In this document: piece by piece, positions 18,740-62,203 of the stretch
Numbering within the stretch: position 1 is the stretch's first letter
How the letters are laid out: each line of letters starts with the position of its first letter
DNA from: Dehalococcoidia bacterium
Lineage (GTDB): Bacteria > Chloroflexota > Dehalococcoidia > Plut-88900
Assembly: GCA_965207225.1 (NCBI GenBank)
Contig: CBDBLV010000005.1
Coordinates: 1,152,001 to 1,216,000, forward strand
DNA: 64,000 nucleotides
Reading direction: 5' to 3'
Program-made: the position numbers and the translations under genes
Notes under the pieces: generated by a model
Seen by the model: only the letters and a program-made list of their open reading frames with translations
What the model was told of the DNA's origin: nothing
The model's database searches: none

Positions 18740-19573
18740 ATGTTCGTAAGAAGGCTGGAGGACCTGGCCGGTACAGACAAGGAGATGGTCAGGACTGATG
18801 GGAACAGGAGACTGCAATCGAGGCGGTTGGTGACAAAGGCGGACGGCGCAGGATTTTCCATGTCGGACGTCAGGATATCGGAGGGCTGGGTGATCGACCT
18901 TTGGTACAAAAACCACGTTGAGGGGAACCTGGTGGTGAGCGGCGACCTGCACGTGGAGAACCTGGTTAACGGCGACAGCTGGGACCTGGGCGCGGGCGAC
19001 CTGTATGTGGTCGGGCCGAAGGACCGGCACCGGCTGACGGCCAACAGCGACGTCCACTTAGTCAGCGTCTTCAATCCCGCCACGCTGGGTACCGAGACCC
19101 ACGACGCTGATGGTTCCTATCCGCCCACCGGAGAACTCCCCCCCGAGTGGCAGGGAGAGGATGGCCGGACAATGTTCGTGAAGCGGCTGGCGGACACCAA
19201 GGTGGTTGGGATCAGCCACGGGAAGTCGACGGCATACCGGTATCTCAACCAGCCGGAGGGGTGGGGTTTCACCATGTCGACGCCGCGTTCGCCGGCGGGC
19301 AAGGGGATAGTGCTGTGGTACAAGAACCACGTGGAGGCGAACTACATCCTGGAGGGCGAGGGCACGGTGGAAGACCTAACGACGGGGGAGAAGTGGGACC
19401 TGGCCCCGGGCACGATGTATTTTGTCGGGCCGAAGGACAGGCACCAGACGGTTAAGTTCAGCGACACATACCTCCTGAGCGTGTTCAACCCACCCCTGGT
19501 GGGGCATGAGACCCACGACGAAGAGGGGACGTACACGCCGTCGGGGCCAATCCCCGAGGCCTGGAGGCCGTAG
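18740..19573 (+). CDS. Double-domain ectoine synthase (EctC)-like cupin, copy 1
   Basis: Two repeats of MFV.RL...WYKNHVE...LY.VGPKDRH...SVFNP...ETHD..G.Y. Confidence 0.85.
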   Translation: MFVRRLEDLAGTDKEMVRTDGNRRLQSRRLVTKADGAGFSMSDVRISEGWVIDLWYKNHVEGNLVVSGDLHVENLVNGDSWDLGAGDLYVVGPKDRHRLTANSDVHLVSVFNPATLGTETHDADGSYPPTGELPPEWQGEDGRTMFVKRLADTKVVGISHGKSTAYRYLNQPEGWGFTMSTPRSPAGKGIVLWYKNHVEANYILEGEGTVEDLTTGEKWDLAPGTMYFVGPKDRHQTVKFSDTYLLSVFNPPLVGHETHDEEGTYTPSGPIPEAWRP

Positions 19574-19595
19574 AGACCAACCCGGAGGAGGACCC

Positions 19596-20429
19596 ATGTT
19601 CGTTAGAAGAGTCGATGACCTTAACGGGACCGACAAAGAGATGCTGGTGGAAAAGGACGGGGGCAGGCTGCAGGGCAGGCGGCTACTGACCAAGGAAGAC
19701 GGTTGTGGCTTCTCCTTTTCCGATGTGCGTATATCCGCGGGGTTCAGTGCGGACCTGTGGTACAAGAACCACGTGGAGGGGAACCTGCTGGTGTCGGGGG
19801 AGATGGAAGTGACGGAGCATTCGAGCGGCAACAGCTGGCAGTTGAGCGCGGGAGACCTGTACGTGGTCGGGCCGAGGGACCGACATCGGGGGACTGCGAA
19901 GACCGATTGCCACATCATCAGCGTGTTCTCTCCCGCCACGGTGGGCAACGAGAGGCACGATGCCGACGGCTCCTACCCGCCAACCGGGGAGATTCCCCCG
20001 GCCTGGCAGGGGGAGAACGGCCGCACGATGTTTGTGAGGAGGCTGTCCGAGACCCGGGTGGTGGGGATCAGCCACGGTCGGACCAAGGCATACCGCTACC
20101 TGACCCACGACGACGAATGCGGTTTCACTATCTCGACGCCGCGGGCACCTGCAGGCCAGGGGATCGTGCTTTGGTACCAGAACCACGTGGAGGCGAACTA
20201 CGTCTTCGAGGGTGAGGGCACCCTGGAGGAGAAGAACACGGGCAAAAAGTGGGACGTTGGGCCGGGTACACTGTACGTGGTCGGGCCGAAGGACCCACAC
20301 CAGCTGACCTCGAACACGGGATTCTACGTGATGAGCGTATTCAACCCGCCGCTCTACGGCGGAGAGACGCACGACGACCAGGGCGCTTATCCGCCCACGG
20401 GGCCTATTCCGGAGGCCTGGCGCCCGTAG
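19596..20429 (+). CDS. Double-domain EctC-like cupin, copy 2
   Basis: Same two-domain layout; GGAGGAGG RBS before ATG 19596. Confidence 0.85.
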   Translation: MFVRRVDDLNGTDKEMLVEKDGGRLQGRRLLTKEDGCGFSFSDVRISAGFSADLWYKNHVEGNLLVSGEMEVTEHSSGNSWQLSAGDLYVVGPRDRHRGTAKTDCHIISVFSPATVGNERHDADGSYPPTGEIPPAWQGENGRTMFVRRLSETRVVGISHGRTKAYRYLTHDDECGFTISTPRAPAGQGIVLWYQNHVEANYVFEGEGTLEEKNTGKKWDVGPGTLYVVGPKDPHQLTSNTGFYVMSVFNPPLYGGETHDDQGAYPPTGPIPEAWRP

Positions 20430-20517
20430 CTCAACAGCACACAGTCGATGAGATAGCGTGGCTGCTCATACTTGGCTCTATCGGGTATGAGCGGCCTCTT
20501 CATTTGCAGGTGGAATC

Positions 20518-21462
20518 ATGTTCGTAAGGACGCACGAGGATATCGCAGGGACCGAGAACGAGATGGTGCGGAGGGACGGGGACAAGTCACTGCGGTCTTT
20601 GAGGATGTTGACCAAGGCCGACGGTTGCGGCTTTTCGCTGTCGGATGCGTACTTTTCGGCGGGCTTCTCCCTTGACCTGTGGTACAAGAACCACGTGGAG
20701 GCCAACTTCATATTGAGCGGGGTGGTGCAATTGGACGATGTGACCTCGGGCGGGAGCTGGAACCTGGAAGGAGGGTCTCTGTACATGGTCGGGCCGAGGG
20801 ACAAGCACCGGCTGACTGCGAAAAGCGACGTACACCTGGTCAGCGTGTTCTGTCCGGCCGTGCTGGGAAACGAAAGACACGACGCGGACGGGGCCTTCCC
20901 CCCGACGGGCGACATCCCCCCGGCATGGCAAGGCCCCGACGGCCATACCATGTACGTCAGGACGCGGGATGAGGCACGGGAGGTGGGCATCAAGCACGTA
21001 GGGACGGAGGCGCGGCGATACCTCACGCAGTCTGACGGGTGCGGGTTCACCATATCCACGGCACGGCCGCCAGCCAAGTCGGGGGCCGACTTGTGGTACC
21101 GGAACCACGTGGAGGCGAACTACATCATAGAGGGCGAGGGGTCGGTGGAAGACTTGAACACGGGAGAGAAGTGGGACCTGGCGGCGGGGAGCCTGTACGT
21201 GGTCGGGCCGAGGGACCGGCACCGGATGAGTGCGCATAGCGAGGTCTATCTGATGGCGGTGTTCAACCCTCCGCTGGTGGGGGATGAGACGCATGACGAG
21301 CAGGGAGGTTATCCGCCCACCGGGGTGGTGCCGGAGGGGTGGGGGGTTGTAAGGGCTATGCAGAAACCACCTGAACTGTTAAGGACGAAACACGGGGACG
21401 CTACCCTTTGTGGTCTCTATCACTCCCTGACGTCGATAATCTCAAATTCGGCGAGCGGATAA
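20518..21462 (+). CDS. Double-domain EctC-like cupin, copy 3
   Basis: Same layout; C-terminus runs about 37 aa beyond the paralogs' PEAWRP end. Confidence 0.85.
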   Translation: MFVRTHEDIAGTENEMVRRDGDKSLRSLRMLTKADGCGFSLSDAYFSAGFSLDLWYKNHVEANFILSGVVQLDDVTSGGSWNLEGGSLYMVGPRDKHRLTAKSDVHLVSVFCPAVLGNERHDADGAFPPTGDIPPAWQGPDGHTMYVRTRDEAREVGIKHVGTEARRYLTQSDGCGFTISTARPPAKSGADLWYRNHVEANYIIEGEGSVEDLNTGEKWDLAAGSLYVVGPRDRHRMSAHSEVYLMAVFNPPLVGDETHDEQGGYPPTGVVPEGWGVVRAMQKPPELLRTKHGDATLCGLYHSLTSIISNSASG

Positions 21463-22994
21463 ATTTCGGGGTTCTGTGTTCTCGTAACTCCGATACCTCC
21501 GGCAATCAACACCCGCCCGTCGGACAAGACGGTTGCAGAGTGGTTCACTCGCGGTTTGGACAATTCCGGGCCCAGAGACCAAAGACCTGTAGCGGGATCA
21601 AAGATTTCGGTAAATGAGACAAAAGTCTGCTCTTCTGTAGACGAGGTCTGGATGTCCGAAGATTCCCACGGAAGCTCCACTCTGGCTCCTCCAGCAGCGA
21701 GCACTCGTCCGTCGGGCAGTAGAGACAGGGTAGCCGAGGCTCGCGGGTGAACCATCAGTCCCGCGGGGACCCATAGGTCGGTGCTGGGATCAAATACTTT
21801 AGCTCCAAAAAACCGGGCCTTGAAATCCGCCTCGGATATGCGGGCCCCGTCCGGGAGTTGGACGGATAGTATTTCGGTATCGTCATATTCGATGACTAGG
21901 TGAGTACCGTCAGGGAGCCGAAGAGTGTCGACTCCAGGGGAGCGTTCTACAGGAGTCGCATTATCGATTGCAATGTAATCGCCGGTTACCAACAACCTCT
22001 CATCGGCGAGTTCAACACCGTCTAAGTACACAAAGTAAGGATCAATACTTTCCAATGCGCTCCATTGGTCAGAGTCTGGATCGTAAACCTCTGCATGAAG
22101 AACAGTCGAGTCATAATCCAAAAGCACCGTTCCGATGGCCAGAACCCGACCATCTTCCAGTAAGAAAAGGTTCTGTTCTTCCATCGTCTCCTGTGTAGAT
22201 GCCGCTCGTGTCCAAGTTCCGGTTGAAGGATCGAAAATCTCTGAGGAATTCAGTTTATCGGGATTGGAGAAATATGCGATGTCGTCTGGGGTTACAGCCA
22301 AGCCAGCAGTCATGAAGACGCGTCCATCCTGAAGAAGAAGCAGATTAGGGAGAGCTCGGAGGGCAGAAGGGGGTGGCGCTGCAACCCAGGAATCCGAGTT
22401 TGCGTCGAACAGAGCGGCCATAGGAACAAACTCGCCGTCTTCATGAACTCTTACACCGACCATGAGAACTCTATTATCGGCTAACTCCACCAAGGAATAG
22501 AACGCTCCTGGGCCTTCGATAGGCTCCAATACAGTCCATTCTTCAGTGGAAGGGTCATAAATCTGGATGGGTCCAACCACAGCGTGAATGATCACGTTAT
22601 TGTTGGCTACCAGGCCGGTAATGCCGCCAGCTACTAGGACTCGGCCGTCTTCCAACGCAATCCCAGAATGTTGGAAGACTGGGGCGAACATGTGCGGGCC
22701 TGTAGTTTCCAGCCCCTGAATAGAGAGTGGCGTTGGGGCGGGGCGGGTGCCAGGTACTCCAGTAATGGTCGCGGTAGGGGCAGGTACGCTTGAGGCTGTA
22801 GGAGCAGGCGTTGGGGCACCCAGCAATTCGGGGCTGAGAGATGGGGAAACCGAGGTTGGGGAAGACGGCAATAGCGGGCTAGGGGACGGGGAAACAGGTG
22901 TAGGGGAAGGACCGAAAGACGATGGGTCTTCTATACAGCCTTGGGCTAGAGCCAAGGATAGCAGAAGGCAAAGGACCAGAAACCAGAGTTTCAT
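21420..22994 (-). CDS. Kelch-repeat (beta-propeller) lipoprotein
   Basis: Signal peptide with lipobox-like LAQGC, Pro/Ser/Thr linker, repeated L.DGRVL..GG and E.FDP.T..W motifs. Confidence 0.82.
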   Translation of the reverse strand: MKLWFLVLCLLLSLALAQGCIEDPSSFGPSPTPVSPSPSPLLPSSPTSVSPSLSPELLGAPTPAPTASSVPAPTATITGVPGTRPAPTPLSIQGLETTGPHMFAPVFQHSGIALEDGRVLVAGGITGLVANNNVIIHAVVGPIQIYDPSTEEWTVLEPIEGPGAFYSLVELADNRVLMVGVRVHEDGEFVPMAALFDANSDSWVAAPPPSALRALPNLLLLQDGRVFMTAGLAVTPDDIAYFSNPDKLNSSEIFDPSTGTWTRAASTQETMEEQNLFLLEDGRVLAIGTVLLDYDSTVLHAEVYDPDSDQWSALESIDPYFVYLDGVELADERLLVTGDYIAIDNATPVERSPGVDTLRLPDGTHLVIEYDDTEILSVQLPDGARISEADFKARFFGAKVFDPSTDLWVPAGLMVHPRASATLSLLPDGRVLAAGGARVELPWESSDIQTSSTEEQTFVSFTEIFDPATGLWSLGPELSKPRVNHSATVLSDGRVLIAGGIGVTRTQNPEIYPLAEFEIIDVRE

Positions 22995-23045: not shown

Positions 23046-24179
23046 CTAGTTCAGCCCGTACAGCGTCGCTGCATTCTCGCCAACTATCTTGACGGTTTCG
23101 TGCTGGGGGATGTCGTGGAAGTCCTTGGCGATCTGTTGCCGGGAGAAGGGGAATACGCCCTCGGGGTGGGGGTAGTCGGAGCCCCACATCAGCCTGTCCA
23201 CGTCGAGGAGCTCGCGGGTTAGAAGGCCGGCTCGGTCATCTTCGAACGTGGCCCAGAACTGTCGGAAGAAGTAGCTGCTGGGCGGCTCTTCCAGCTTGGG
23301 CTCCATCCAGTGGCGGTGATCCTCCCACCAGTGGTCGTTGAGGCGCAGGACGCTCGGGATCCAGCCGATACCGCCTTCGGCCATAACGAATTTCAGGCCG
23401 GGGAAGGCCTGGGGGACGCCGGAAAGAATGAGGTCGGTGAGGCCACGGGCCACGGCGCATATCTTCTGCTCAATAACTGCGACGCCGACGCCCATACTGC
23501 GGTACTTGTCGGCGCTAACGGACTTTGTGCTTGAACCGACGTGAAACCCCAAGGGCAGGCCGACATCCTGTAGGGCACCCCAGAGCCGGTCGCCACCTTC
23601 CATGTTGACGTATCCACCTTCAATTTCCAGGGGAAGCATTACGGATTTCAGCCCCAACCTAGCGCACCTCTCAACCTCGGCGATCTTGCTTTCGGTGGAG
23701 CCGCGCATGGGCAGGATGCCGACGCCCATGAGGCGGTCGGGTGAGGAGGCGCTGAACTCGGCGATCCAGTCGTTGTAGACGCGGACGATTTCGATGTGGA
23801 GGTCGGCGTCGGAGGCGTTGTAACACCAGAGACCGAAGACGCCGGGGTACATGATCTCGGCGCGGATGCCGTCCAGGTCCTGGTCCTTGAGGCGCTCGAC
23901 GGGGTCCCAGGCGCCGGGTCGGGTGTCCTCATAGCGGAGGCCGGCCATGTGGATCTCTTTGCCCTCGGCCTTGTCGGTGGCAGCGGTGCCCTCGCCTGAG
24001 AGTCCGATGGCGAACTCGCCGAAACCCTCCATCACGTAGAAGTCGCCTGAGTCCCGGGACTCGATGTGGGGGGCCTTGGCGGCCATCTTGCTGTCCATTC
24101 GAGACGTGAACAGGTCCCTGGGCTCCACAATGTGTCCGTCAGCGGAAACATAGCCTCCGGAAAGGGTGGTCGTTGACAT
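23046..24179 (-). CDS. Amidohydrolase_2 family protein
   Basis: SADGHIVEP, FHVG, AEGGIGW, LMWGSDYPHPEG. Confidence 0.9.
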   Translation of the reverse strand: MSTTTLSGGYVSADGHIVEPRDLFTSRMDSKMAAKAPHIESRDSGDFYVMEGFGEFAIGLSGEGTAATDKAEGKEIHMAGLRYEDTRPGAWDPVERLKDQDLDGIRAEIMYPGVFGLWCYNASDADLHIEIVRVYNDWIAEFSASSPDRLMGVGILPMRGSTESKIAEVERCARLGLKSVMLPLEIEGGYVNMEGGDRLWGALQDVGLPLGFHVGSSTKSVSADKYRSMGVGVAVIEQKICAVARGLTDLILSGVPQAFPGLKFVMAEGGIGWIPSVLRLNDHWWEDHRHWMEPKLEEPPSSYFFRQFWATFEDDRAGLLTRELLDVDRLMWGSDYPHPEGVFPFSRQQIAKDFHDIPQHETVKIVGENAATLYGLN

Positions 24180-24290: not shown

Positions 24291-25247
24291 ATGGGCAAAT
24301 CTGAAGACCGGCTGATGCCCGAGGCCTGGCAGGACGGGCCCCGGTACGGCAGCCCCAGCACCTTTATGCAAGTACCCGGCACGCGGGACCTGTCCAGGGC
24401 CGACGTGGCGGTGGTCGGGCTACCGCTGGACCTGGGAACGATAATTCGGTCGGGGGCGAGGTTCGGGCCGAGAGGGATACGGACGGCGTCGATGCACGTC
24501 GGGCTGCACGGTTTGGACGAAGCGGAACTTCGGGAGCCTTTCAAGAGCCTCCGGATTGTCGATTACGGCGATATCGAGCTGACCTACGGGTACATAGAGG
24601 AGGCGGTGAATAGGATAGAAAACGCGGTTTCGGAGATAATCTCGCATGACGTGTTCCCGGTGTGTCTCGGGGGCGACCATACGGTGTCGCTGCCCATACT
24701 GCGGGCGCTGTACAAGAAGCACGGGAAGATATCGCTGGTGCACTTCGACGCCCACCCCGACTTCTGGGAGCCGTCCAAGGACATGCCCCTCCATCATGGC
24801 ACCATGTTCCGGATCGCCTCGGACGAAGGGATCATGGATCCAAAGACGTCGGTGCAGGTGGGGATAAGGGGTCGGCCGGCCATGGGGATATTGGACAACG
24901 TAAGAGAGGCGGGCATCACGGTGATCACCGGCGAGGAGTTCTGGCACACCGGGGTTGATGCGACCATCGAGAAGATTAAGGAAGCCACGAAGAGTCGGCC
25001 GGTGCACATTTCGTACGACATCGACAGCGTTGACCCGGGTTTTGCGCCGGGAACCGGTACGCCGGAGGTTGCGGGACTGACGAGTCGGGAGGCGATGGCG
25101 TTGGTGAAGGGGCTGAAGGGAATCGGGACGGTGGGGTTCGATATTGTTGAGGTTGCCCCAGCCTACGACACGTCGGAGATAACCGCTCTGCTGGCGGCAA
25201 ACCTAACATTGCAGTTCATGCTGACCCTGGTCCCGGACAAAGAGTAG
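24291..25247 (+). CDS. speB: Agmatinase/ureohydrolase family amidinohydrolase
   Basis: GARFGP, GGDHT, DAHPD, SYDIDSVDPGFAPGTGTP, VEVAP; exact substrate uncertain. Confidence 0.85.
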   Translation: MGKSEDRLMPEAWQDGPRYGSPSTFMQVPGTRDLSRADVAVVGLPLDLGTIIRSGARFGPRGIRTASMHVGLHGLDEAELREPFKSLRIVDYGDIELTYGYIEEAVNRIENAVSEIISHDVFPVCLGGDHTVSLPILRALYKKHGKISLVHFDAHPDFWEPSKDMPLHHGTMFRIASDEGIMDPKTSVQVGIRGRPAMGILDNVREAGITVITGEEFWHTGVDATIEKIKEATKSRPVHISYDIDSVDPGFAPGTGTPEVAGLTSREAMALVKGLKGIGTVGFDIVEVAPAYDTSEITALLAANLTLQFMLTLVPDKE

Positions 25248-25265: not shown

Positions 25266-25637
25266 ATGGCTTCAAAGAGGACTTTTGAAGACTGGCTGGA
25301 GGGGGTGGAGCCCAGGCTGAGGCCAATGGCCCTGGGGCTGAGGCGGATGTTCCTGGATGCTGAGCCGGGGTTGGGGGAGTCGATCAAGTGGGGCAACCCC
25401 TGCTTTGAGAAGAAGCTGAGGGTGTTCTACCTGGCTTCGCAGGGGGACAGGTATATTACGCTGGGTTTGTGGCAAGGGGCACTTCTTCCGAACTCGGAGG
25501 GGCTGATCGAGGGGACGGGGAAGAGGATGAGGCACGTCAAGATCAGGACTGCAGAGGAGTTGGAGAACCCGGAGGTGGGGCGGATAATCCGGGAGGCGGT
25601 GGAAATAGACGGGACGGAGGGTACGAGTAACCGGTAG
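25266..25637 (+). CDS. DUF1801 (YdhG-like) protein
   Basis: ESIKWGNPCF, GALL...LIEGTGKRMRHVKI. Confidence 0.85.
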   Translation: MASKRTFEDWLEGVEPRLRPMALGLRRMFLDAEPGLGESIKWGNPCFEKKLRVFYLASQGDRYITLGLWQGALLPNSEGLIEGTGKRMRHVKIRTAEELENPEVGRIIREAVEIDGTEGTSNR

Positions 25638-25898: not shown

Positions 25899-27149
25899 AT
25901 GGTTGACCATGCCGTCGAGGAGCGCGTCCTGCGCCAGATCAAGACCGAGCAGACCGTCAAGCTGGCCAGCGACCTAATCTCCATACCCAGCTTCAAGACC
26001 GAGGAGCAGAAGGTCGCACGGTTCCTGGCTCGATTCTTCCAGCGCCGCGGCTACGAGGTTGATCTACAAGAAGTCGAGCCGGGCCGGTACCAGACGATCG
26101 CGACGCTGAAGGGGTCGGGTGGGGGTAAGAGCCTGATGCTGAACGGGCACATAGACATCGACCCCTTGGCCATGGGCTGGGTGCGGGAGCCGTTCACGCC
26201 CAGCTGGGAAGGCGACCGGCTGTACGGGGCGGGCGTCAACAACATGAAGGGCGGCGTAACCGCAATCATCACTGCCGCCGAAGCGATTCGGAAGGCCAAG
26301 GCCCCGATGAAGGGCGACCTTGTCGTGGCGTGCGTGGTTGGCGAGCTACAGGGGGGTGTCGGGACAGTCTACGCGTTGAAAAACGGTATGAGGACGGATG
26401 GGGCGTACGTGGCTGAACCCACGGGCGACGGGGACAACATTATGACGACCCATGCAGGCGTGGTTGAACTGGCGATCAGCACGATTGGGCTGTCACAGCA
26501 CGTGAGTCGGTCTCACCTGGCCGTGGATGCGCTGGAGATGATGACAAAGGCTATCCCAGCAATCAAGAACGTGGACTTCACATACGAACACAGGCCCGAC
26601 CTGCCAGACCTGCCGCGAATCATTTGCGGGACGATTATCGGGGGTCGGGGGAGGAACCACGACCTGAAGGGGCCAAATTTCACCTGCGACTACTGTACGG
26701 TGATAGTCGATGCCCGGATAGTCCCCGGGCAGTCCCACGTCACGGTGAAGGCCGACCTGGACAGGGTGATGAGCAAATTCAAGGAAGAGGACCCGAACTT
26801 CGAATACGAGATCGTTACGCCCGTGCCACCCGAGTACAAGGTAATGACCGAGTTCATGAACCCGCTGGACGTTCCGAAGGACAACGTGATAGTGCAGAAC
26901 CTGGAGAAGGCATACACGAGGGTGTCGGGGCGGGCGCCGGATAAGGTCGGGGCTATTCTGACGCAGTCATACGCAGGCAACGACAGCTGCCACATCTGGG
27001 AGGCGGGGATACCGGTGTGTCTGATGGGGGCGGAGAACGGTCGGGACCAGAAGGGCGAACCCGACTCCTACGTCATAGTGCCGAGCATGGTGCAGTTGGC
27101 GAAGACGTACGCGATGGCGGCGCTGGACTGGTGCAACCAGGAGAAGTAG
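25899..27149 (+). CDS. M20 (ArgE/DapE-like) deacylase, copy 1
   Basis: LMLNGHID, LYGAGVNNMKGG, VVGELQGG, VAEP. Confidence 0.88.
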   Translation: MVDHAVEERVLRQIKTEQTVKLASDLISIPSFKTEEQKVARFLARFFQRRGYEVDLQEVEPGRYQTIATLKGSGGGKSLMLNGHIDIDPLAMGWVREPFTPSWEGDRLYGAGVNNMKGGVTAIITAAEAIRKAKAPMKGDLVVACVVGELQGGVGTVYALKNGMRTDGAYVAEPTGDGDNIMTTHAGVVELAISTIGLSQHVSRSHLAVDALEMMTKAIPAIKNVDFTYEHRPDLPDLPRIICGTIIGGRGRNHDLKGPNFTCDYCTVIVDARIVPGQSHVTVKADLDRVMSKFKEEDPNFEYEIVTPVPPEYKVMTEFMNPLDVPKDNVIVQNLEKAYTRVSGRAPDKVGAILTQSYAGNDSCHIWEAGIPVCLMGAENGRDQKGEPDSYVIVPSMVQLAKTYAMAALDWCNQEK

Positions 27150-27174: not shown

Positions 27175-28419
27175 ATGGATGCAAGCGCAAAGCAGAAAGT
27201 CCTCTCCAAGATCAGGGACCGGGAGGTCGTAGACCTTTGCAGCAACCTGCTGCGGATCCCGAGCTTCAAGACGGAGGAGCAGAAGGTTGCCAGGTACCTG
27301 GCCGGCTACTTCCGGCGCCGGGGGTACGAGGTTGATCTGCAGGAGGTGGAGCCGGGTCGGTACCAGACGATAGCGACGCTTAAGGGGTCGGGCGGGGGGA
27401 AGAGCTTGATGCTGAACGGTCACATAGACATCGACCCCCTGGCCATGGGCTGGGCCCGAGACCCCTGGAGTCCAAGCTGGGAGGGCGACCGGCTCTACGG
27501 GGGCGGCGCTTTCAACATGAAGGGCGGCGTGGCGTCGATGATATCCGCGGCGGAGGCGATACGGAAGTCGGGGGTGGGGTTGAAGGGGGACATCGTGGTG
27601 GCGTGCGTTGTGGGTGAGCTGCAGGGAGGAGTGGGGACGGTGCATGCCTTGGAGAGCGGAGTATCGGCGGACATGGCCATTGTTGCGGAGCCTTTCGGGT
27701 CACGGACCATCATGACCACCCACGCAGGCGTTATAGGGATGGCGATAAACACCCTGGGCTACTCCACGCACATCACGGTGCGGGAGCAGGGAGTCGACGC
27801 CATAGCGAAGATGATGAAGGTGATCGATGCGGTGGACAAGGTCGAACTCAGGCACACGCCCCACCCCGAGCTGCCGGGTCTGCCGCGTATCAACTGCGGG
27901 GCAATCATAGGGGGTCGGGGGAGGGACCAGGACCTAAAGGGGCCCAACTATGTAAGCGATTTCTGCACCTCCATCTGGGACGTGCGGATTGTTCCGGGCC
28001 AGACCGCGGAGACCGTGGAAGAGGATGTTCGTAAAGTTCTCGAGGCTCTTGGCGCCGAGGACCCGGACTTAAGGTGGGAAGTAGAGATTCCACCGCCCGC
28101 CAAGTACAAGGGTGTGGCGGTCACCATGGACCCTGTGGACATCCCGAGGGACGAGTATATAGTCGGGGCGGTGGCGCGGGCGATGGAAGAGCACACAGGT
28201 TCGCCACCGGAGAATATCGGGGCAATTCTTCCCCGTTCATATGCGGGGAACGATACCTGCCACCTCTGGAAAGCGGGCATCCCGTGCGTGCTCAACGGCC
28301 CCGGGGGCGACCGAACCTTCGATGACGTGCCGGACACCTTTGTCTACGTAAGCGAGATGGTCGAGTGTGCGAAGACTCACGCCCTGACCGCACTTGAAGT
28401 CTGCAACCTGTCCGCCTAG
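27175..28419 (+). CDS. M20 (ArgE/DapE-like) deacylase, copy 2
   Basis: Clear paralog of copy 1 with the same motifs. Confidence 0.88.
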   Translation: MDASAKQKVLSKIRDREVVDLCSNLLRIPSFKTEEQKVARYLAGYFRRRGYEVDLQEVEPGRYQTIATLKGSGGGKSLMLNGHIDIDPLAMGWARDPWSPSWEGDRLYGGGAFNMKGGVASMISAAEAIRKSGVGLKGDIVVACVVGELQGGVGTVHALESGVSADMAIVAEPFGSRTIMTTHAGVIGMAINTLGYSTHITVREQGVDAIAKMMKVIDAVDKVELRHTPHPELPGLPRINCGAIIGGRGRDQDLKGPNYVSDFCTSIWDVRIVPGQTAETVEEDVRKVLEALGAEDPDLRWEVEIPPPAKYKGVAVTMDPVDIPRDEYIVGAVARAMEEHTGSPPENIGAILPRSYAGNDTCHLWKAGIPCVLNGPGGDRTFDDVPDTFVYVSEMVECAKTHALTALEVCNLSA

Positions 28420-32682: not shown

Positions 32683-33294
32683 ATGACGGAACTGGCAAAT
32701 AAACGTTTGGACTATCACGTCCCCGCTCGAGAGGGCAAGGCGTTCAGGGTGTCCAAAGGCGAGTTGATCAAGGTGATTGATCTGAGAGGCGGCCAGGCGG
32801 TCGACCTCTTCGCTTTCAACGTCGAAAACGTCAAGGAATTCCTTAGCGCCCACCACACCCGGCCTTCCATCGAGAGGCTGTTCCCCATTGAAGGGGAGGC
32901 TTTCTATACCCAGGAGCGTCGGCCCATTATCACCCTCGTGAAGGACCACAGCCCCGGCATCCATGACCTGCTTTTCGCTGCGTGCAACCCGAGCCGGTAC
33001 CGGGAGTTGGGGGTGGAGGGGTGGCACGCCAGCTGCGAGGAGAACCTGCAGAAGGAGATGGAGAAGATCGGGGTGCCGGGCGTCGAGGTCCCGCAGCCGG
33101 TCAACCTGTTCACCAATTTCCCGGTGTTCCCCGATGGGCGGATGGGCGTAGCTGCTCCGCAGACCAAGGCCGGTGACTACGTGATTCTCAGGGTGGAGAT
33201 GGACTGCTGGATATGTGTCTCGGCGTGCCCGCAGGACCAGAACGACACCAACAGCGGCAACCCCACGGACGTCAGTGTGGAAGTTGGTTCGTAA
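32683..33294 (+). CDS. DUF1989 (urea carboxylase-associated) protein
   Basis: GGQAVDL, HDLLFAAC, HASCEENL, NLFTN, SACPQD. Confidence 0.88.
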   Translation: MTELANKRLDYHVPAREGKAFRVSKGELIKVIDLRGGQAVDLFAFNVENVKEFLSAHHTRPSIERLFPIEGEAFYTQERRPIITLVKDHSPGIHDLLFAACNPSRYRELGVEGWHASCEENLQKEMEKIGVPGVEVPQPVNLFTNFPVFPDGRMGVAAPQTKAGDYVILRVEMDCWICVSACPQDQNDTNSGNPTDVSVEVGS

Positions 33295-36035: not shown

Positions 36036-36213
36036 TGGTTCCTCCGGGAGACGCTTGGATGCGATGCGGCCCCTATTCTAACGTTTGGGGGTCGGGGCTT
36101 GCCATAACCGAGGTGGGAACCGGCAGGAATCCCGGTATAGGCTTCGACAGGCGGGGTGGGGTGGGTATAATGGCGCGGTTGTCCGAGGTCCCCAAGCGTT
36201 CAGGATAGATGCC

Positions 36214-41292: not shown

Positions 41293-41446
41293 GAGTGCCC
41301 CCTTTGGTTGAACCTGGAAATTCTTCAAGCGTCCGGGTCCGGGTATAGGGTAGTATATTCCCTCCGCGGATGAAATTACGAGATGCGTGGACTAGAATTG
41401 GCGTAACCGGGCTCCTGCCAAGGTGCCAGTTTCAGGAGGGACAATA

Positions 41447-46478: not shown

Positions 46479-46510
46479 GGTTGGTTAAGGGAGTCAGGGG
46501 GACGGGGGGA

Positions 46511-50241: not shown

Positions 50242-50244
50242 GGG

Positions 50245-51594: not shown

Positions 51595-51766
51595 TTGCGG
51601 TTGTCCCTTCGGGCAGTGAGGTTGGTGGCAAGCAGAGGCTCGGGGGCCGGGGGAATGATACAACATCGGGGTGGGGGGTGTGCGATGGTGCCACGGGGCT
51701 GAGAGCAACCACTCAGCCCCACAAGGGAACCCTCACCCCCTTGGTCCCCCTCTCCCTTAGGGCCTG

Positions 51767-54220: not shown

Positions 54221-54228
54221 CCCGCACC

Positions 54229-55698
54229 ATGAACGCTTCGCAACCTCTCCACGCTCTCACCATCCACGACGCATCCGAACTGCTGGCGCGCCGCCAGATC
54301 TCCTCTGTAGAGCTTACGGAGGCCGTGCTGGCCCGCATTGAGGGAGTGGATGAGAGGGTCAAGGCTTTCGTTACGGTCACTGGGGATAGGGCGATGGAAG
54401 AAGCGCGGGCGTCGGATGAGAGACGGGGTGCAAGAAGGCTCGGGCCCCTGGACGGGGTGCCGATGATGCTGAAGGACAACCTCTGCACGAACGGCATTAG
54501 AACCACGTGCTCCTCCAAAATGCTAGAGAACTTCGTGCCGCCCTATGATGCCCACGTTACGGAGCGGCTGCGGGAGTCGGGGGCGGTTATGGTGGGGAAG
54601 GGCAACCTTGACGAGTTTGCGATGGGGTCTTCGACGGAGAACTCGGCGTATTTCACGACGAGTAACCCCTGGGACCTGGGTCGGGTGCCGGGGGGGAGCA
54701 GCGGGGGAGCAACGGCTGCGGTGGCGGCGGGGGAGGCAATGTATTCGCTGGGCTCCGACACGGGCGGCAGCATCCGGCAGCCGGCGTCCTTCTGCGGGGT
54801 GGTGGGATTGAAGCCGACCTACGGGGCGGTGAGCAGGTACGGGCTGGTGGCCTTCGGGAGCTCGCTGGACCAGATAGGCCCGATTACCAAGGACGTGAAG
54901 GACAGCGCGCTGGTGATGAACGTGATTGCGGGGCACGATGCACGGGACTCGACGTCCGTACCATTTGAGCCGCCGGACTACACTGAATCCCTGGTGCCGA
55001 ACATCAAGGGGATGAGGATAGGGGTACCGAAGGAGTATTTTGTCGAGGGGATGGGGCAGGACGTGGTCGACGTTATAGGGAGAGCCATTGCCAAGCTTGA
55101 GGAGCTGGGGGCGGAGGTAGAACGCGACGTATCCTTGCTCCACACGAAGTACGCACTGGCGGTGTACTACATCATTGCTCCCTCGGAGGCGTCGGCGAAT
55201 TTGGCCCGGTACGACGGTGTGAAGTACGGGTACTCGGCGCAGGATGCGGGGAGCATGTGGGAGGCGATGGAGAAGACGCGGCAGCACGGGTTCGGGCCCG
55301 AGGTGAAGCGGCGGATAATGCTCGGGACCTATGCTCTGTCGTCGGGCTACCACGATGCTTACTACCTGAAAGCGCAGAAGGTGAGGACGTTGATACGTCG
55401 TGAGTTCGAAGAGGCGTTTGAGCGGTACGACGCCCTGGTAGCGCCGACTTGCCCGACTCCGGCCTTTGAGCTCGGGGCGAAGACCGACGACCCCGTGCAG
55501 ATGTACCTGAGCGACATTTGCACCATCCCGGCGAACATTGCTGGCATCCCTGCGATCTCGGTGCCGGCGGGGTTTTCGTTCGGGCTGCCGGTGGGGATGC
55601 AGATCATGGCCAAGGCCTTTGGGGAGCCGACCCTCTTCAGGCTGGCCTACGCCTACGAGCAGTCGATGGGGTGGCGGCACCTTCGGGCGCCGGTCTAA
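54229..55698 (+). CDS. gatA: Asp/Glu-tRNA amidotransferase subunit A
   Basis: NLDEFAMGSSTENS, PGGSSGG, GSDTGGSIRQP, EVKRRIMLGTYALS.GY.DAYY. Confidence 0.96.
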   Translation: MNASQPLHALTIHDASELLARRQISSVELTEAVLARIEGVDERVKAFVTVTGDRAMEEARASDERRGARRLGPLDGVPMMLKDNLCTNGIRTTCSSKMLENFVPPYDAHVTERLRESGAVMVGKGNLDEFAMGSSTENSAYFTTSNPWDLGRVPGGSSGGATAAVAAGEAMYSLGSDTGGSIRQPASFCGVVGLKPTYGAVSRYGLVAFGSSLDQIGPITKDVKDSALVMNVIAGHDARDSTSVPFEPPDYTESLVPNIKGMRIGVPKEYFVEGMGQDVVDVIGRAIAKLEELGAEVERDVSLLHTKYALAVYYIIAPSEASANLARYDGVKYGYSAQDAGSMWEAMEKTRQHGFGPEVKRRIMLGTYALSSGYHDAYYLKAQKVRTLIRREFEEAFERYDALVAPTCPTPAFELGAKTDDPVQMYLSDICTIPANIAGIPAISVPAGFSFGLPVGMQIMAKAFGEPTLFRLAYAYEQSMGWRHLRAPV

Positions 55699-55837
55699 GA
55701 AGGCCCGGCACTTAACCTCGCAAGTAATCTTCTTAGATTCGCCCATGCTTCGACAGGCTCAGCACAGGCAGTGTGAGTACGGTGCATTTTGCTATACTCA
55801 CAGGACTCCTCCCGAGTCTTTATTTCCTGACGACACT

Positions 55838-57379
55838 ATGGGCAATCGCGACGTTTCGGCGGCCTGGGACTATCACAACGCCACCAAGCACACTTACTGG
55901 AGCGTGCGCGGGGGTCTCGGGCTGGACTGGCCCAACCAACCCCTGCCTTTCAAGATTTACAAGGATGTAGAGAGCATTCGGCTTCCGAGAGACGGGGGCC
56001 CGATAACGGCGGGACTGCTGGAGGCGCTAGGTGCTTCCCCAGCATCTCTTGAAGGGGAGTCGGTCCCCGACCTGGGCCTGCTGGCCCGCATCCTGTATTT
56101 CTCCGCGGGCATTACGAAGAGGATGCCGTACACGGGAGGCGAGATCTTCTTCCGGGCGGCGGCCTGCACGGGTGCGCTGTATCACATCGACCTGTACCTG
56201 GTCTGCGGTGACATGCCGGGCCTGGAAGCGGGGATCTACCATTTCGGGCCGCACGACTTCGGGTTGGTGCAATTGCGGAAGGGAGACTTCCGGCGTGTGC
56301 TGGTGGAAGCATCGGGGGAGGAGCCGGCAGTGGCAGAAGCGCCGGTGACGGTTGTTCTGGCCGACACCCATTGGAGAAATGCCTGGAAATACGGGGCCCG
56401 GGCGTACCGGCACGCGTTCTGGGACTCGGGGACGCTGCTGGCGAATATGCTGGCTGCGGCGTCGGGGGCGGGAGTCCCGGCGAGGGTTGTGACTTCTTTT
56501 GTGGACGAGGAGGTGCACCGATTGCTCGGGTTGGAAGCGGAGAAGGAGTCGGTGATTGCATTGGTGCCGTTGGGTCAGGTGCCGGGTCAAGTGGTCGGGG
56601 AAACACCTCCCATCGAGCCTCTCAACCTTTCCACCGAGTCCCTTTCCCCCAAGATGATCGAGTACCCCGCGATCTACGATTTTCACAGGAGTTCTTCCCT
56701 TGAATCGGCAGAAGAGGTGAAGGACGTAAGAGATGGGACGCCGGAGAGGGAAGAAGGTGAGGAAGTGGGAGAGCTTATCGCACTGCCTCGGGATGGGGAG
56801 GGGTTGGGGGACCGGACGCTGGAGGAGACGATTGTAAGGCGGGGGTCGACGCGTGCGTTTGCGCATGAGTCGATATCCCTGGAACAGCTAGTTGTGGCGC
56901 TGGACTATTCGACTCGGGGGATTGACGCAGACTTCCTACCGTCTTGCGGTTCGTCGATCAACCGGCTTTTCCTGATAGTGAACGCAGTCGAGGGCCTCGC
57001 CCCGGGCGCGTACCTGTACCACCGAGGGCAGCATGCGCTGGAGTTGCTGAAGGAGGGAGACTTCCGTAGGGAGGCGGGATATCTGGGTCTTGAGCAGAAG
57101 ATCCCTGCCGATGCCAGCGTTAACGTCTACATGCTTGCAGACTTGAACCAAGTCCTGGGAGCGTACGGGAACCAGGGGTACCGGATGGCGGAGCTGGAAT
57201 CGGGGATAATAGGGGGCCGGTTGTACCTGGTGGCCTACGGCACGGGATTCGGGGCCAGTGGTCTGACATTCTACGACGATGAGGTAGTCGAGTTTTTCGG
57301 GCCGAGGGCGGAAGGGCTGAGCGTGATGTTCCTGGTGGCGCTGGGACGGTCTGTGAAGCGGCGGAAAGTCGGGGAATAG
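55838..57379 (+). CDS. SagB/ThcOx-like double-domain FMN nitroreductase-fold protein
   Basis: YHNATKH, RAAACTGALY, KYGARAYR, second domain RRGSTR...GLAPGAY...YRMAELESG. Confidence 0.8.
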   Translation: MGNRDVSAAWDYHNATKHTYWSVRGGLGLDWPNQPLPFKIYKDVESIRLPRDGGPITAGLLEALGASPASLEGESVPDLGLLARILYFSAGITKRMPYTGGEIFFRAAACTGALYHIDLYLVCGDMPGLEAGIYHFGPHDFGLVQLRKGDFRRVLVEASGEEPAVAEAPVTVVLADTHWRNAWKYGARAYRHAFWDSGTLLANMLAAASGAGVPARVVTSFVDEEVHRLLGLEAEKESVIALVPLGQVPGQVVGETPPIEPLNLSTESLSPKMIEYPAIYDFHRSSSLESAEEVKDVRDGTPEREEGEEVGELIALPRDGEGLGDRTLEETIVRRGSTRAFAHESISLEQLVVALDYSTRGIDADFLPSCGSSINRLFLIVNAVEGLAPGAYLYHRGQHALELLKEGDFRREAGYLGLEQKIPADASVNVYMLADLNQVLGAYGNQGYRMAELESGIIGGRLYLVAYGTGFGASGLTFYDDEVVEFFGPRAEGLSVMFLVALGRSVKRRKVGE

Positions 57380-58719: not shown

Positions 58720-59880
58720 ATGAAGAAACCGAACTGGCAGTATTTCGAGTTGGAGGAGTACCAGCGGAGGCTGGATGCTCTGAGGGGTCGGATGGAGGGG
58801 TTGGGTGTGGACGCGGTGCTCATCAACACCCCCGAGAACCTCTACTACCTTTCGGGATACCAGACCCCTGGGTACTACTGGTGGCAGACGCTGGTCGTGC
58901 CGATGGACCGGGAGCCGGTTTCGGTGACACGCCGGGTGGAAGATTCGAACATGCGGGAGCTGGGGTGGGTGGAAGATAGGCGGCCCTATGAAGATTACGA
59001 AGACTGGGTCGAGAAGACCCGGGACGTGCTGGTGGACCTGGGGCTTGGGGGGAAGACCATCGGGATGGAGTTGGGCAGCTTCTTCCTGCCAGCGAGGGAC
59101 TATCTGAAGCTGCAAACGCTGATGCCCGGCGCCCGGTTTGTCGACAGCACGGGACTTGTGGAGGCCGGACGGCTTATCAAGTCCCCTCAGGAGATTGAGT
59201 ACATGTGGCAGGCGGCCCGGGCGGCGGAGGCGGCAACACTGGCAGGTATCGAGGCGGTGAGACTCGGGGCAACGGAGAACGACGTGGCAGCGGAGATGCA
59301 CCTGGCACAGATCAAGGCCGGCAGCGAGTACACGGGCCTACCGATGTTCATAGCGTCGGGGGTGAGGTCTACGATGACCCACGCCACCTGGTACCGGAGA
59401 CCCTTGGAGAAGGACGAGGTGGTCTTCTTCGAGGTGCCGGGGTGCATAAACCGCTACCACGCAGCGATGATGCGAGAGGTCTACATTGGGGACCCGCCGG
59501 AGTGGATGTCACGAGGGATGGACGTGGTGACCGACACCCTTGCAAAAGCCAAAGAGAAGATCAAGCCGGGGGTCGTGGCTGGGGAATTGTTCGAAGAGAT
59601 CAAGGGGATGCTGGACTCGGCGGAGCTGGGGGCCAAGCTGGAGCGTCGGGCGGCGTACTCCATAGGCATAGCATTCGCGCCCGACTGGGGCGAGGGCCAT
59701 ATACTGAGCATAATGAGGGGCGAGGAGCGGACTCTCCAGCCGGGGATGACCTTCCACCTGATCCCCGGGGTCCGGGTGGTGGGGCTGGGGGGCATCCTGT
59801 GCAGCGACACGGTGCTTGTCACGGAGGACGGGTGTGAGACGTTGACGAGTGGGGTGGAGCAGAAGCTGTTTGTGAAGTGA
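58720..59880 (+). CDS. M24-fold DoeA/EutD-like protein, copy 2
   Basis: Same motifs; ends QKLFVK. Confidence 0.8.
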   Translation: MKKPNWQYFELEEYQRRLDALRGRMEGLGVDAVLINTPENLYYLSGYQTPGYYWWQTLVVPMDREPVSVTRRVEDSNMRELGWVEDRRPYEDYEDWVEKTRDVLVDLGLGGKTIGMELGSFFLPARDYLKLQTLMPGARFVDSTGLVEAGRLIKSPQEIEYMWQAARAAEAATLAGIEAVRLGATENDVAAEMHLAQIKAGSEYTGLPMFIASGVRSTMTHATWYRRPLEKDEVVFFEVPGCINRYHAAMMREVYIGDPPEWMSRGMDVVTDTLAKAKEKIKPGVVAGELFEEIKGMLDSAELGAKLERRAAYSIGIAFAPDWGEGHILSIMRGEERTLQPGMTFHLIPGVRVVGLGGILCSDTVLVTEDGCETLTSGVEQKLFVK

Positions 59881-60010
59881 GGGTAAGCGAGACGGAATGG
59901 CGGGAGTGAACCCCGCCCCCGCTCGACCCTTCGACTCCGCTCAGGATGAGCGGCCCCGCCGCCCCAGAGAAAATATACAGGAGTTATCTGTAAACGGGTA
60001 AGGAGTGAAG

Positions 60011-61186
60011 ATGAGAAAACCGAAGTATCAGTTCTTCACGCTGGAGGAGTACCAAGCTCGGCTGGACGCACTTAGGGGTCGGATGGAGCAGCGGGGGATC
60101 GACGTTTTGCTGGTGAACTCGCCGGAGAACCTCTACTACATCTCGGGGTACCAGACGCCAGGTTACTACTGGTACCAGACTCTGATCGTGGGGCTGGACA
60201 GGGAGCCGACCTTCGTGACGCGGCTAAACGAGGCTTCCAACATCGAACCCTTCTCCTGGGTGGAGGACAGCCGTCCATACGAAGACCACGAGGACTGGAT
60301 TGATCACACGCGGGTTGCGCTGGTAGACCTGGGACTGGCGGACAAGCGGGTCGGGCTGCAGTACGATTCATTCTTCCTGACCTCAAGGGACGAGAAGAGG
60401 CTGACGGCGGCGCTGTCCGATGCGACGTTCGTGGATGGGTCGGGGTTGGTGGAGGAGGGGCGGATGGTCAAGTCGGAGCAAGAGATCGAATATATCCGGC
60501 AGGCGGCGAGGACGGCGGAGGCGGGGCTGAGGGCGGGGATCGAAGCGTGCGCGGTCGGGGTGACGGAGAACGACGTAGCGGCGGAGATTCACCGGGCCCA
60601 GATAGCAGCGGGCAGCGAGTACACGGGCCTGCCCATATTCATCAGGACGGGGTCTCGAGACCTGATGACCCACTCGACCTGGTATCGCAACACCCTGCAA
60701 GCCGGAGAGAGCGTTACCATCGAGATGCCAGGATGCATCAACCGGTATCACGCGGCGACGTACCAGCAAATATATCTCGGGGACCCGCCGGAACTGCTGT
60801 TGAGGGCGCGGGAGGTAGGGGCAAAGGTGATGGCTGAGGCGAAGTCGGCGATAAGGCCTGGGGTGCCAGCCGGGGACATTCACAGGCTGGTTCAGGACAG
60901 TTTGGAGGAGGCGATGGGTGTCGGGAGCAAGCGGAACAGTCGGGCGGCGTACTCTATAGGCATCGCCTTTGCGCCCGACTGGGGGGAGGGGCACATCATC
61001 AGCATGACAGAGGGCGAGACACGGCCGCTGCAGGTCGGTATGACCTTCCACCTGTTGGCGGGCCACGTGGCCCTGCAGGGCCTGGACGGGGTGAAGAGGG
61101 CTGTGAACAGCGACACGATACTGGTAACGGAAGAGGGCTGTGAAACGCTAACGGACGGGTTGGAGCACAGGTTGTGGGTGAAGTAG
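60011..61186 (+). CDS. M24-fold DoeA/EutD-like protein, copy 3
   Basis: Same motifs; FTLEEYQARL. Confidence 0.8.
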   Translation: MRKPKYQFFTLEEYQARLDALRGRMEQRGIDVLLVNSPENLYYISGYQTPGYYWYQTLIVGLDREPTFVTRLNEASNIEPFSWVEDSRPYEDHEDWIDHTRVALVDLGLADKRVGLQYDSFFLTSRDEKRLTAALSDATFVDGSGLVEEGRMVKSEQEIEYIRQAARTAEAGLRAGIEACAVGVTENDVAAEIHRAQIAAGSEYTGLPIFIRTGSRDLMTHSTWYRNTLQAGESVTIEMPGCINRYHAATYQQIYLGDPPELLLRAREVGAKVMAEAKSAIRPGVPAGDIHRLVQDSLEEAMGVGSKRNSRAAYSIGIAFAPDWGEGHIISMTEGETRPLQVGMTFHLLAGHVALQGLDGVKRAVNSDTILVTEEGCETLTDGLEHRLWVK

Positions 61187-61204
61187 GAACCTGGAGGTGA
61201 CACC

Positions 61205-62203
61205 ATGAAATTCGGGATTATGCTGCCGCATTCAGGGGCGCTGGCGGAGGTGGAAGCTATCAGGCGCGTGGCGCTGGAGGCCGACGATTTGGGCTTCGAC
61301 TCCGTATGGTGCCACGACCACGTGACCTACGATACAGACTGGTTCCTGCACCGGGGTTCGGGGTTGATTGAGCAGTGCGAGGGTATCGAGCCACATTTCT
61401 ACGAGTCGATAAACACGCTGACCTGGGTGGCTGGGATGACGCAGAACGTGAAGCTGGGGACGGCGATACTCGTGCTGCCTCTGCGGGACCCCCGGGTGCT
61501 GGCCCGGCAGGCGATGACGTTGCAGTCACTGTCGGGTGGGAGGCTGATGCTGGGGGTCGGGATCGGGGACTACCCGATCGATTTCCGGGTGATGCAAATC
61601 CCCTACGACGAAAAGAACCGCATCACCGACGAGTACATAGACGTACTGAACGCGGCGTTCCAGGGCGGACACGTCGACTTCCAGGGGCCGAACATCTCGT
61701 TTGAGAATGCATCGTACTTCCCGAGAACGGAGCCCAAGGTGCCGGTCCTATACGGGGGTGGGGTGGTGTACCCGCGCCCGACGCGCCAGCCGAAACTCTA
61801 TGAACCGGCCATTCGGCGCATAGCCCAACGGTGCGACGGGTGGATACCTGAGGGGCCGCCCCATGTGATGGCGGAGGGTATCAAGCGGATCCGGGAGCTG
61901 GCGGCGGAGGCGGGGAGGGGGGACGTCGACTTCCAGGTGACGGGGTACATCCCGCTTTACATAGACCAGGACTCGGCGGCGCAGGCGATGACCAGAAAGA
62001 CATTGGTAACGGAGATCCACACCTTTGAAGAGGGGTTGGCAGGGTCCCTGGTGGGGTCGGTGGGGCGGATATGCAAGGTGATCGAGTCTTACCAGGAGGC
62101 GGGTGTCAATGGGTTGGGGATGCGGTGCTGGGCAGAAAACTTGCCGAGGTTCGTGGCGATGATGAGGACGTTTGCGCGGGAGGTTATGCCTCGGTTTGCG
62201 TGA
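61205..62203 (+). CDS. LLM-class (luciferase-like) flavin/F420 oxidoreductase
   Basis: MKFGIMLP, GFDSVWCHDH, VKLGTAILVLPLRDP, SGGRLMLGVGIG, CDGWIP. Confidence 0.9.
   Translation: MKFGIMLPHSGALAEVEAIRRVALEADDLGFDSVWCHDHVTYDTDWFLHRGSGLIEQCEGIEPHFYESINTLTWVAGMTQNVKLGTAILVLPLRDPRVLARQAMTLQSLSGGRLMLGVGIGDYPIDFRVMQIPYDEKNRITDEYIDVLNAAFQGGHVDFQGPNISFENASYFPRTEPKVPVLYGGGVVYPRPTRQPKLYEPAIRRIAQRCDGWIPEGPPHVMAEGIKRIRELAAEAGRGDVDFQVTGYIPLYIDQDSAAQAMTRKTLVTEIHTFEEGLAGSLVGSVGRICKVIESYQEAGVNGLGMRCWAENLPRFVAMMRTFAREVMPRFA

Follow-up and report, generated by a model that had tools for sequence, protein, structure and literature searches.

Tandem fused double-EctC genes in a Dehalococcoidia genome and their candidate role in the turnover of ectoine-like nitrogen compounds

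Gene content of the window and of the genome

The window analysed here is a stretch of 64,000 nucleotides from a Dehalococcoidia bacterium (assembly GCA_965207225.1, contig CBDBLV010000005.1, C5:1152001-1216000), the assembly of which comprises 4.03 Mb in 5 contigs and is 92.3% complete with 8.33% contamination (genome code G000). Open reading frames (ORFs) were listed and then scanned with Pfam and NCBIfam profiles, and the window was found to contain three tandem genes for fused double-EctC proteins, three tandem M20 deacylase genes and three tandem genes for M24 hydrolases resembling DoeA/EutD (Table 1). All three triplets had been correctly located by the original prediction, which was made from the sequence alone and had joined them in one 3+3+3 catabolic system for ectoine-like cyclic amidines. 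The GC (guanine plus cytosine) content was found to be high across the window (0.58-0.64) and the GC skew was positive throughout. The double-EctC proteins are read here, at somewhat less than an even chance, as catabolic hydro-lyases that would open or close the rings of ectoine-like nitrogen compounds, with the M24 triplet as a separate module.

All three double-EctC proteins of the window scored above the NF009806 cut-off of 128 bits, and each half was found to match the full EctC domain (E about 1e-23, HMMER against P. lautus EctC). The ORF of gene b opens at 19506, and its homology begins at the ATG at 19596. Copies a and b were 68% identical, and the N-half and the C-half of copy a were 47% identical. 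Paralogs were counted by phmmer searches of the window proteins against the ORF set of the whole genome (E<1e-5), by which seven double-EctC genes with 14 EctC domains in total were found, three in the window and four in tandem at C1:56472-60063. The seven paralogs were 52-78% identical to one another and orthologs of individual paralogs were present in other metagenome-assembled genomes, and the paralogs are old and conserved. Directly upstream of the array of four lies an M24 gene of more distant relationship (142 bits to DoeA_2), and this second array together with its upstream M24 region spans C1:55231-60063 (L001:15231-20000 and L002:1-63). A gene for a DAO-family FAD (flavin adenine dinucleotide) oxidoreductase was also found upstream of the C1 array (L001:11080-12435), and an MBL-fold gene and an M16 peptidase gene were found downstream of it.

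The C-terminus of copy c was found to be 37 amino acids (aa) longer than its homologues, which cover 88% of copy c. In the locus maps of the relatives L003-L009 the EctC array abuts the Amidohydro_2 gene directly and no Kelch-repeat gene lies between them, so the Kelch-repeat gene of the window looks like an insertion that replaced the end of copy c. One relative was found to contain a TAA inside a double-EctC copy.

No match to ectA (TIGR02406), to eutE/doeB (TIGR02994) or to AstE_AspA_cat (PF24827) was found anywhere in this 92.3% complete genome. The ectB profile (TIGR02407) gave 13 genome matches, the best with a score of 196.1 against a cut-off of 552.2, so that none passed, and none was located within the window; the four genome matches to AA_kinase (PF00696) also lie outside the window. 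The best genome match to an EhuB-type ectoine-binding protein scored 41.1 against 190.9, and none passed. The absence of ectA, ectB and ask from the window, which the original prediction had reported, was thus confirmed, and the absence of a DoeB/EutE-type deacetylase was found to extend to the whole genome. As judged from these profile searches, the genome would be unable to make ectoine by the known route, and since it holds no ectA and no ectB over the cut-off, ectAB genes elsewhere do not explain the EctC copies as biosynthetic.

Large paralog families were found across the genome, with 82 copies of Amidohydro_2, 59 of CaiB (CoA-transferases), 56 of the LLM oxidoreductases, 27-28 of M24, 13 of the agmatinase family and 10 of the amidase, and the M20 paralogs numbered seven at E<1e-5 and five at E<1e-40. 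In this genome paralogs have generally multiplied, both in tandem and at scattered sites. Given this expansion and the genome-wide counts of 7, 5 and 27, the three-by-three copy numbers of the original prediction are not a stoichiometry, and the 3+3+3 pattern is a side effect of the tandem multiplication of paralogs throughout the lineage.

Table 1. Features of the window with positions, strands and supporting matches (scores in bits; "vs" gives the family cut-off)
Feature	Position	Strand	Remarks
Double-EctC gene a	18740..19573	+	277 aa, predicted bicupin; two PF06339 stretches, E 2.6e-64; NF009806 221.1
Double-EctC gene b	19596..20429	+	277 aa; two PF06339 stretches, E 3.7e-63; NF009806 218.7
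Double-EctC gene c	20518..21462	+	314 aa; two PF06339 stretches, E 1.4e-66; NF009806 227.4
Kelch-repeat gene	21420..22994	-	Pfam; not at this position in L003-L009
Amidohydro_2 (PF04909)	23046..24179	-	convergent with EctC array; syntenic in L003-L009
Agmatinase-family ureohydrolase	24291..25247	+	NF002564 308.7 vs 302; heads the agmatinase-DUF1801-M20x3 block
DUF1801 protein	25266..25637	+	Pfam; syntenic in L003-L009
M20 ArgE/DapE-type deacylase 1	25899..27149	+	M20 + M20_dimer; TIGR01910 188.8
M20 deacylase 2	27175..28419	+	M20 + M20_dimer; TIGR01910 204.0
M20 deacylase 3	28434..29681	+	M20 + M20_dimer; TIGR01910 204.5
DUF1989 protein	32683..33294	+	ortholog directly after M20 triplet in sister genus G154
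Second DUF1989 protein	40681..41328	-	Pfam
Hydantoinase	41423..42892		TIGR02033 396.9 vs 393.25
GDH	43915..45198		profile scans
IS481-type transposase (rve, LZ_Tnp_IS481)	51822..52949	-	between amine-oxidase pair and amidase/M24 block
Amidase	54229..55698	+	upstream part of M24 module
Nitroreductase-domain protein	55538..57379	+	613 aa; profile scans
DoeA-like M24 hydrolase 1	57379(57424)..58584	+	NF038259 387.3; TIGR02993 224.9
DoeA-like M24 hydrolase 2	58720..59880	+	NF038259 370.3; TIGR02993 220.2
DoeA-like M24 hydrolase 3	60005..61186	+	NF038259 346.6; TIGR02993 193.5
F420/LLM-class oxidoreductase	61205..62203	+	after M24 triplet; TIGR03619 165.7 vs 166.9

Active site, fold and origin of the double-EctC proteins

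The active-site residues were located in HMMER alignments to P. lautus EctC and transferred over the alignment of the seven paralogs, with their roles taken from the available text of PMC6344544. The iron triad Glu57/Tyr84/His92 was found to be conserved in 14/14 domains, as were Arg25, Tyr52 and Phe106. Asn38 was conserved in none of the 14 domains and was occupied by Ser in 12 and by Ala in 2, Thr40 was likewise kept in 0/14 and was occupied by Val, Ala or Pro, and Trp21 was found at its position in 0/14, with a Trp shifted by one residue in two domains, both of them N-halves. According to the available text of PMC6344544, N-gamma-acetyl-diaminobutyrate (N-gamma-ADABA) is held by Asn38, Thr40 and Trp21 at its carboxylate, its alpha-amino group and its C3/C4 atoms. 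Since these three residues are not kept, N-gamma-ADABA/ectoine is an unlikely substrate, and both pockets are remodelled where EctC holds the alpha-amino/carboxylate end of the substrate. Across an alignment of 21 double proteins from several phyla, the same 12 catalytic positions did not vary.

An AlphaFold2 model of copy a, built on the 21-protein alignment, reached a pLDDT of 94.4 and a pTM of 0.92, and its predicted fold was that of a classical bicupin (VIA Z 22.9, root-mean-square deviation (rmsd) 3.0 Å, 237 residues aligned to YxaG, 1Y3T). Among the bicupins YxaG quercetinase, oxalate decarboxylase and ureidoglycine aminohydrolase the likeness was in the range of Z 20-23 with an rmsd of about 3 Å over 220-240 aligned residues, whereas the sequence identity to these classical bicupins was 13-21% and the metal ligands of the double-EctC proteins are of the EctC type. 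Each protein is thus modelled as a single-chain bicupin with two complete EctC-type domains and with the metal triad and the catalytic Tyr/Arg/Phe in both.

Each half shares the metal triad and the Arg25, Tyr52 and Phe106 residues with the EctC of P. lautus (5ONM/5ONN/5ONO) and S. alaskensis (5BXX), but the present proteins differ from these by the fusion of two domains, the replacement of Trp21/Asn38/Thr40, the lack of ectAB and the presence of seven paralogs. The orphan EctC proteins of Czech et al. (2018, 2019), as described in the available parts of these papers, are similar in that they lack ectAB, are often multi-copy and contain Ser at position 104. The described orphans are single-domain proteins in which the predicted binding residues are said to be mostly conserved and Trp21 is kept or shifted by two residues, whereas the proteins of this genome are fused and altered. 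The word 'fusion' does not occur in the available text of PMC6344544 and fused forms are not mentioned in that of PMC5924519, and both sources, in the same available text, state the function of orphan EctC-type proteins as an open question. No description of fused double-EctC proteins or of their arrays was found in literature searches, which did not cover the supplements with the 145-orphan alignments (Czech et al.). Orphan, multi-copy EctC-type proteins are already known; the fused double form and the arrays are apparently new.

The tree of EctC domains contained 86 rows, namely the halves of 22 double proteins and 42 single-domain proteins (126-148 aa), the latter hand-picked from 77 matches; the 35 matches not used were for the most part fragments or pieces of 171-236 aa. 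In the Dehalococcoidia the N-halves group in a single clade (100/99) and the C-halves in a second (100/98), and the paralogs pair congruently in the two, so the fusion took place once in this group, ahead of the radiation of the paralogs. Proteobacterial doubles branched elsewhere, mixed with singles of 137-138 aa, and both halves of P0085 (source name Bradyrhizobium arachidis) were sister to each other, which means that EctC-EctC fusion has occurred more than once. Some singles nested in the N-clade may be truncated gene calls.

Double-EctC was matched at E<=1e-3 by 418 protein clusters of 172-550 aa, most of them of 274-286 aa, and the named clusters among them were called 'ectoine synthase' only; the fused double form is thus widespread in metagenomes. 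Of public sequencing runs, 22 were listed as holding this DNA, none of them of RNA, and some, with shares of 0.16-0.26, carry sponge, coral or marine metagenome labels. Such a label on the fused form would miscount ectoine producers in marine/host-associated Chloroflexota and Proteobacteria. With one genome per species, 269 stretches from several phyla were found to encode double-EctC relatives; the best 80 of these gave 71 loci, in which ORFs were called, searched with the window proteins and clustered all-against-all, and which belong to Dehalococcoidia, Alpha- and Gammaproteobacteria, Rokubacteria, Binatia, Entotheonella and others. Within the class, PF06339 was found in 24 of 301 sampled genomes and scored above the cut-off in 18. 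The family of the window contained PF06339 in 12/12 genomes, with 7 to at least 13 EctC domain matches in each of nine genomes of the genus and one double-EctC gene in each of the three other genera. The genomes G098, G167, G213, G210 and G287 were found to contain one single-domain EctC each with a canonical-level score (188-193 bits), and these may be true ectoine producers.

Linkage of the M20 and M24 arrays

The best NCBIfam match of the M20 proteins was TIGR01910 (ArgE/DapE), with all three below its cut-off of 217.6, and the closest solved relative of M20 deacylase 3 was ArgE 7RSF (E 5.7e-23). The M20 triplet was located 2.8-6.8 kb from the EctC array in 9/9 genomes of the genus, and complete congener chromosomes showed the same two-cluster double-EctC layout. 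In L004 and L006-L009 both EctC clusters were found merged into one block with the order DAO, M24, three to six double-EctC genes, Amidohydro_2 on the minus strand, agmatinase, DUF1801 and M20 genes, of which the agmatinase was not kept in the maps of L004 and L009. The M20-EctC linkage is confined to the genus. In the sister genus G154 three tandem M20 genes (L074:9318-13880) were followed by an ortholog of the first DUF1989 gene of the window (E 3.4e-118), and M20x3 plus DUF1989 may be an older conserved unit. In G083 the EctC gene was found among Amidohydro_2 genes with no M20 gene nearby. An M24 triplet or pair was present in all four genera of the family. Since the sister genera hold M20/M24 arrays with one distant double-EctC gene, these arrays are older than the expansion of EctC in the genus and independent of it.

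Creatinase_N followed by Peptidase_M24 was found in all three M24 proteins, the closest solved structure to which was DoeA 6TWK (E 1.2e-56, full length, residues 10-385). Their best family was NF038259 (ectoine_DoeA_2), with a cut-off of 575, and the cut-off of TIGR02993 is 613; since the scores lie well below both, the proteins are DoeA-like and not equivalogs. No doeB/eutE gene was clustered with the M24 triplet, the two deacetylase profiles TIGR02994 and PF24827 having no genome match. The distance between the M24 triplet and the EctC array was found to be 35, 35, 36, 40, 45, 71, 269, 284 and 412 kb in nine congeners. This variable linkage shows that the M24 triplet and the amidase, nitroreductase-like and LLM genes around it are an independent module, and the IS481-type transposase may be related to the differences in where the M24 block lies in the congeners. 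M24 paralogs were also found beside amidases, agmatinase-family or DUF1989 genes at five further sites of the genome (C5:1751409-1753997, C5:754702-758541, C4:285223-291286, C4:348323-350426 and C5:1424048-1426536), which suggests a repeated 'M24 + amide/guanidine hydrolase' module without EctC.

Neighbourhoods and candidate functions

Among the 71 loci, the M20_c query was matched in seven, all of them L003-L009, the M20_a query in eight, the M24 query in 10 (seven close relatives and L027, L031 and L037) and the agmatinase query in nine (seven close relatives and L028 and L031). DAO-family oxidoreductases were found in 10 loci, six of them close relatives, as well as in the C1 cluster of the window genome, and SBP_bac_3 was found in six loci. 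In 7 of the 62 loci outside L003-L011, two to three tandem AstE/AspA-family genes adjoin one to six double-EctC genes together with an SBP_bac_3 ATP-binding cassette (ABC) system. These loci are alphaproteobacterial (L016, L020, L022-L024, L038 and L039), and the AstE/AspA copies are divergent to the tandem double-EctC genes. In five of five genomes, which were chosen for having the pairing, the copies beside EctC were 2-3 of 6-10 AstE-family matches per genome and belonged to a low-scoring subgroup. The AstE-family orthologs were 67-74% identical across three sub-lineages, and paralogs within a locus were 40-48% identical. Since the pairing is confined to one clade, it counts as one further independent case and not as seven, and these arrays lend modest independent support to a cupin-plus-deacylase pairing.

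In the preferred reading, the double-EctC proteins would be metal-dependent hydro-lyases that act at a C-N bond by addition or loss of water and thereby open or close a cyclic amidine or a related N-acyl diamino compound; their substrates would be distinct from N-gamma-ADABA/ectoine. Over time the old paralogs would have come to act on different but related compounds in the catabolic scavenging of small nitrogen-rich solutes, and the adjacent agmatinase-DUF1801-M20x3 block would be a plausible downstream step of deacylation/deguanidination. Such chemistry is consistent with the available text of PMC5924519, in which EctC hydrolyses homoectoine and DHMICA and reversibly forms ADPC, as the original prediction had stated in calling EctC reversible and active on ring-size analogues. 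A deacylase acting after EctC is suggested by the parallel of the AstE-type arrays, by the lack of AstE-family genes in this genome and by putative Bacillaceae ectoine clusters without eutE, which carry the M20 gene abgB (PMC13188858, available text). DoeB itself belongs to the AstE/AspA family (PMC3187862, available text). The scheme shares with DoeA/EutD-DoeB/EutE the two-step logic of ring opening followed by deacylation, and the likeness extends to the M24 proteins, which are closest to DoeA, and to the genes of the DoeB superfamily that adjoin double-EctC in Alphaproteobacteria. It differs in that the M24 triplet has no linkage to EctC and scores under the cut-offs, no DoeB-family gene is present and a cupin would open the ring. 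The wider form of the idea, a DoeA-independent route in which double-EctC opens ectoine-like cyclic amidine solutes and arrayed deacylases of unrelated folds (M20 in this genus, an AstE/AspA subfamily in the alphaproteobacterial clade) finish the breakdown, is doubtful; if true, it would give a catabolic function to the long-unexplained orphan EctC proteins.

Several observations weigh against the hydro-lyase reading. According to the available text of PMC5924519, hydrolysis of ectoine itself by EctC is negligible. The M20 link is synteny in one genus, whose genomes are 81-98% identical at the locus, and with the M20_c query M20 was found beside double-EctC in 0/64 loci outside L003-L009. In the sister genus G154 the M20 triplet lies at 0.70 Mb and the single double-EctC gene at 2.38 Mb, 1.7 Mb apart. 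The proposal of the original prediction that M20 enzymes replace EutE gains from the missing DoeB-type gene, from the linkage in the genus and from the AstE/AspA parallel but loses by this separation. In sister genera double-EctC was instead found in an operon-like run with Amidohydro_2 genes, as in G154, where three such genes follow it on the same strand at spacings of 13-94 bp. The commonest neighbour outside L003-L011 was a Rieske oxygenase alpha subunit (17/62 loci; best NCBIfam match GbcA, 165 against 670), with its gene directly upstream of double-EctC on the same strand in at least 9 of the 17 loci, and TauD dioxygenases in eight loci and PhyH in six could point to oxidative chemistry. 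The proteobacterial context may in turn not transfer to this lineage, because it belongs to a separate branch with independent fusions.

Since the commonest partners are oxygenases outside the lineage and Amidohydro_2 within the family, a different chemistry (oxygenase, isomerase or decarboxylase) stays a serious rival, although it is on balance unlikely; the proteins would then act with Rieske/TauD/PhyH oxygenases and Amidohydro_2 enzymes in the oxidative breakdown of methylated amines/N-heterocycles, and their likeness to EctC would be ancestral only. The DAO-family, GCV_T and ferredoxin genes among the double-EctC neighbours and the Amidohydro_2 run of G154 fit this explanation, and many bicupins are dioxygenases. 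The Amidohydro_2 family includes decarboxylases and lactonases. However, cupin dioxygenases have a His-rich metal site, unlike the unusual Glu/Tyr/His triad of EctC, and this triad with Tyr52, Arg25 and Phe106 is invariant in all 14 domains and in the 21 aligned proteins; the 82 copies of Amidohydro_2, of which the neighbours are not each other's closest paralogs, also speak against it. Amidohydro_2 was considered as a specific EctC partner on its own and was left open on these last two grounds; it was found near both EctC arrays of the genome and near EctC in L012-L014, L075 and L076.

The single 3+3+3 system of the original prediction, in which the rings are opened by M24 enzymes, M20 enzymes stand in for EutE in deacylation and double-EctC interconverts ring-opened isomers, is improbable. 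It draws on the location of the three families within 43 kb, on the likeness of the M24 proteins to DoeA in a genome without DoeB, on H. elongata, in which EctC recycles the N-gamma isomer made by DoeA (PMC3187862, available text), and on the different, more distant M24 gene directly upstream of the C1 EctC array and in seven related loci. The proposed linkage was retained for M20, close to EctC throughout the genus, but not for M24, whose distance from EctC ranges over 35-412 kb among the congeners, and co-occurrence of the families was found throughout the genus, whereas the sister genera hold M20/M24 sets with a single, distant double-EctC gene. The about 27 M24 paralogs, their scores far below the DoeA cut-offs and the replacement of the residues that bind N-gamma-ADABA argue further against it. 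There is similarly little to favour biosynthetic cyclases, for which N-acyl diamino acids, imported or made by another route, would be the precursors of ectoine-like compatible solutes: the equilibrium of EctC favours ring closure for ectoine and a solitary P. syringae EctC made ectoine when given plant material (PMC5924519, available text), but ectA is absent and no ectB passes its cut-off, the seven paralogs are diverged, the substrate-binding residues are altered and the genes nearby encode hydrolases, oxidases and importers of a kind usual in catabolism. Proximity without functional meaning, with arrays arising by neutral tandem duplication and some copies decaying, has a comparably low probability; the expansions of Amidohydro_2, CaiB, LLM, M24, agmatinase and amidase genes across the genome, the altered C-terminus of copy c beside the inserted Kelch-repeat gene, the TAA in the copy of one relative and the IS481 transposase are in its favour, but the catalytic residues are kept in all 14 domains, the paralogs are old with orthologs in other genomes and a parallel array-plus-deacylase layout is present in Alphaproteobacteria.

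The seven diverged paralogs of the arrays and their candidate partner enzymes are a defined set for expression and screening, and if the proteins are catabolic they would represent new turnover routes for nitrogen-rich osmolytes in dissolved organic matter.

The agmatinase, the two DUF1989 proteins, the hydantoinase and GDH, which the original prediction had named as nearby genes, were all recovered by the profile scans. An ORF of 900 aa on the minus strand at 36073-38775 gave no Pfam match at E<=0.001. The window was also found to contain two tandem pairs, namely two CaiB-type CoA-transferases on the plus strand at 45237-47722 followed by two flavin amine oxidases on the minus strand at 48907-51708, and amine oxidases were also present near the Rieske-EctC loci of Gammaproteobacteria (L028, L030 and L031).

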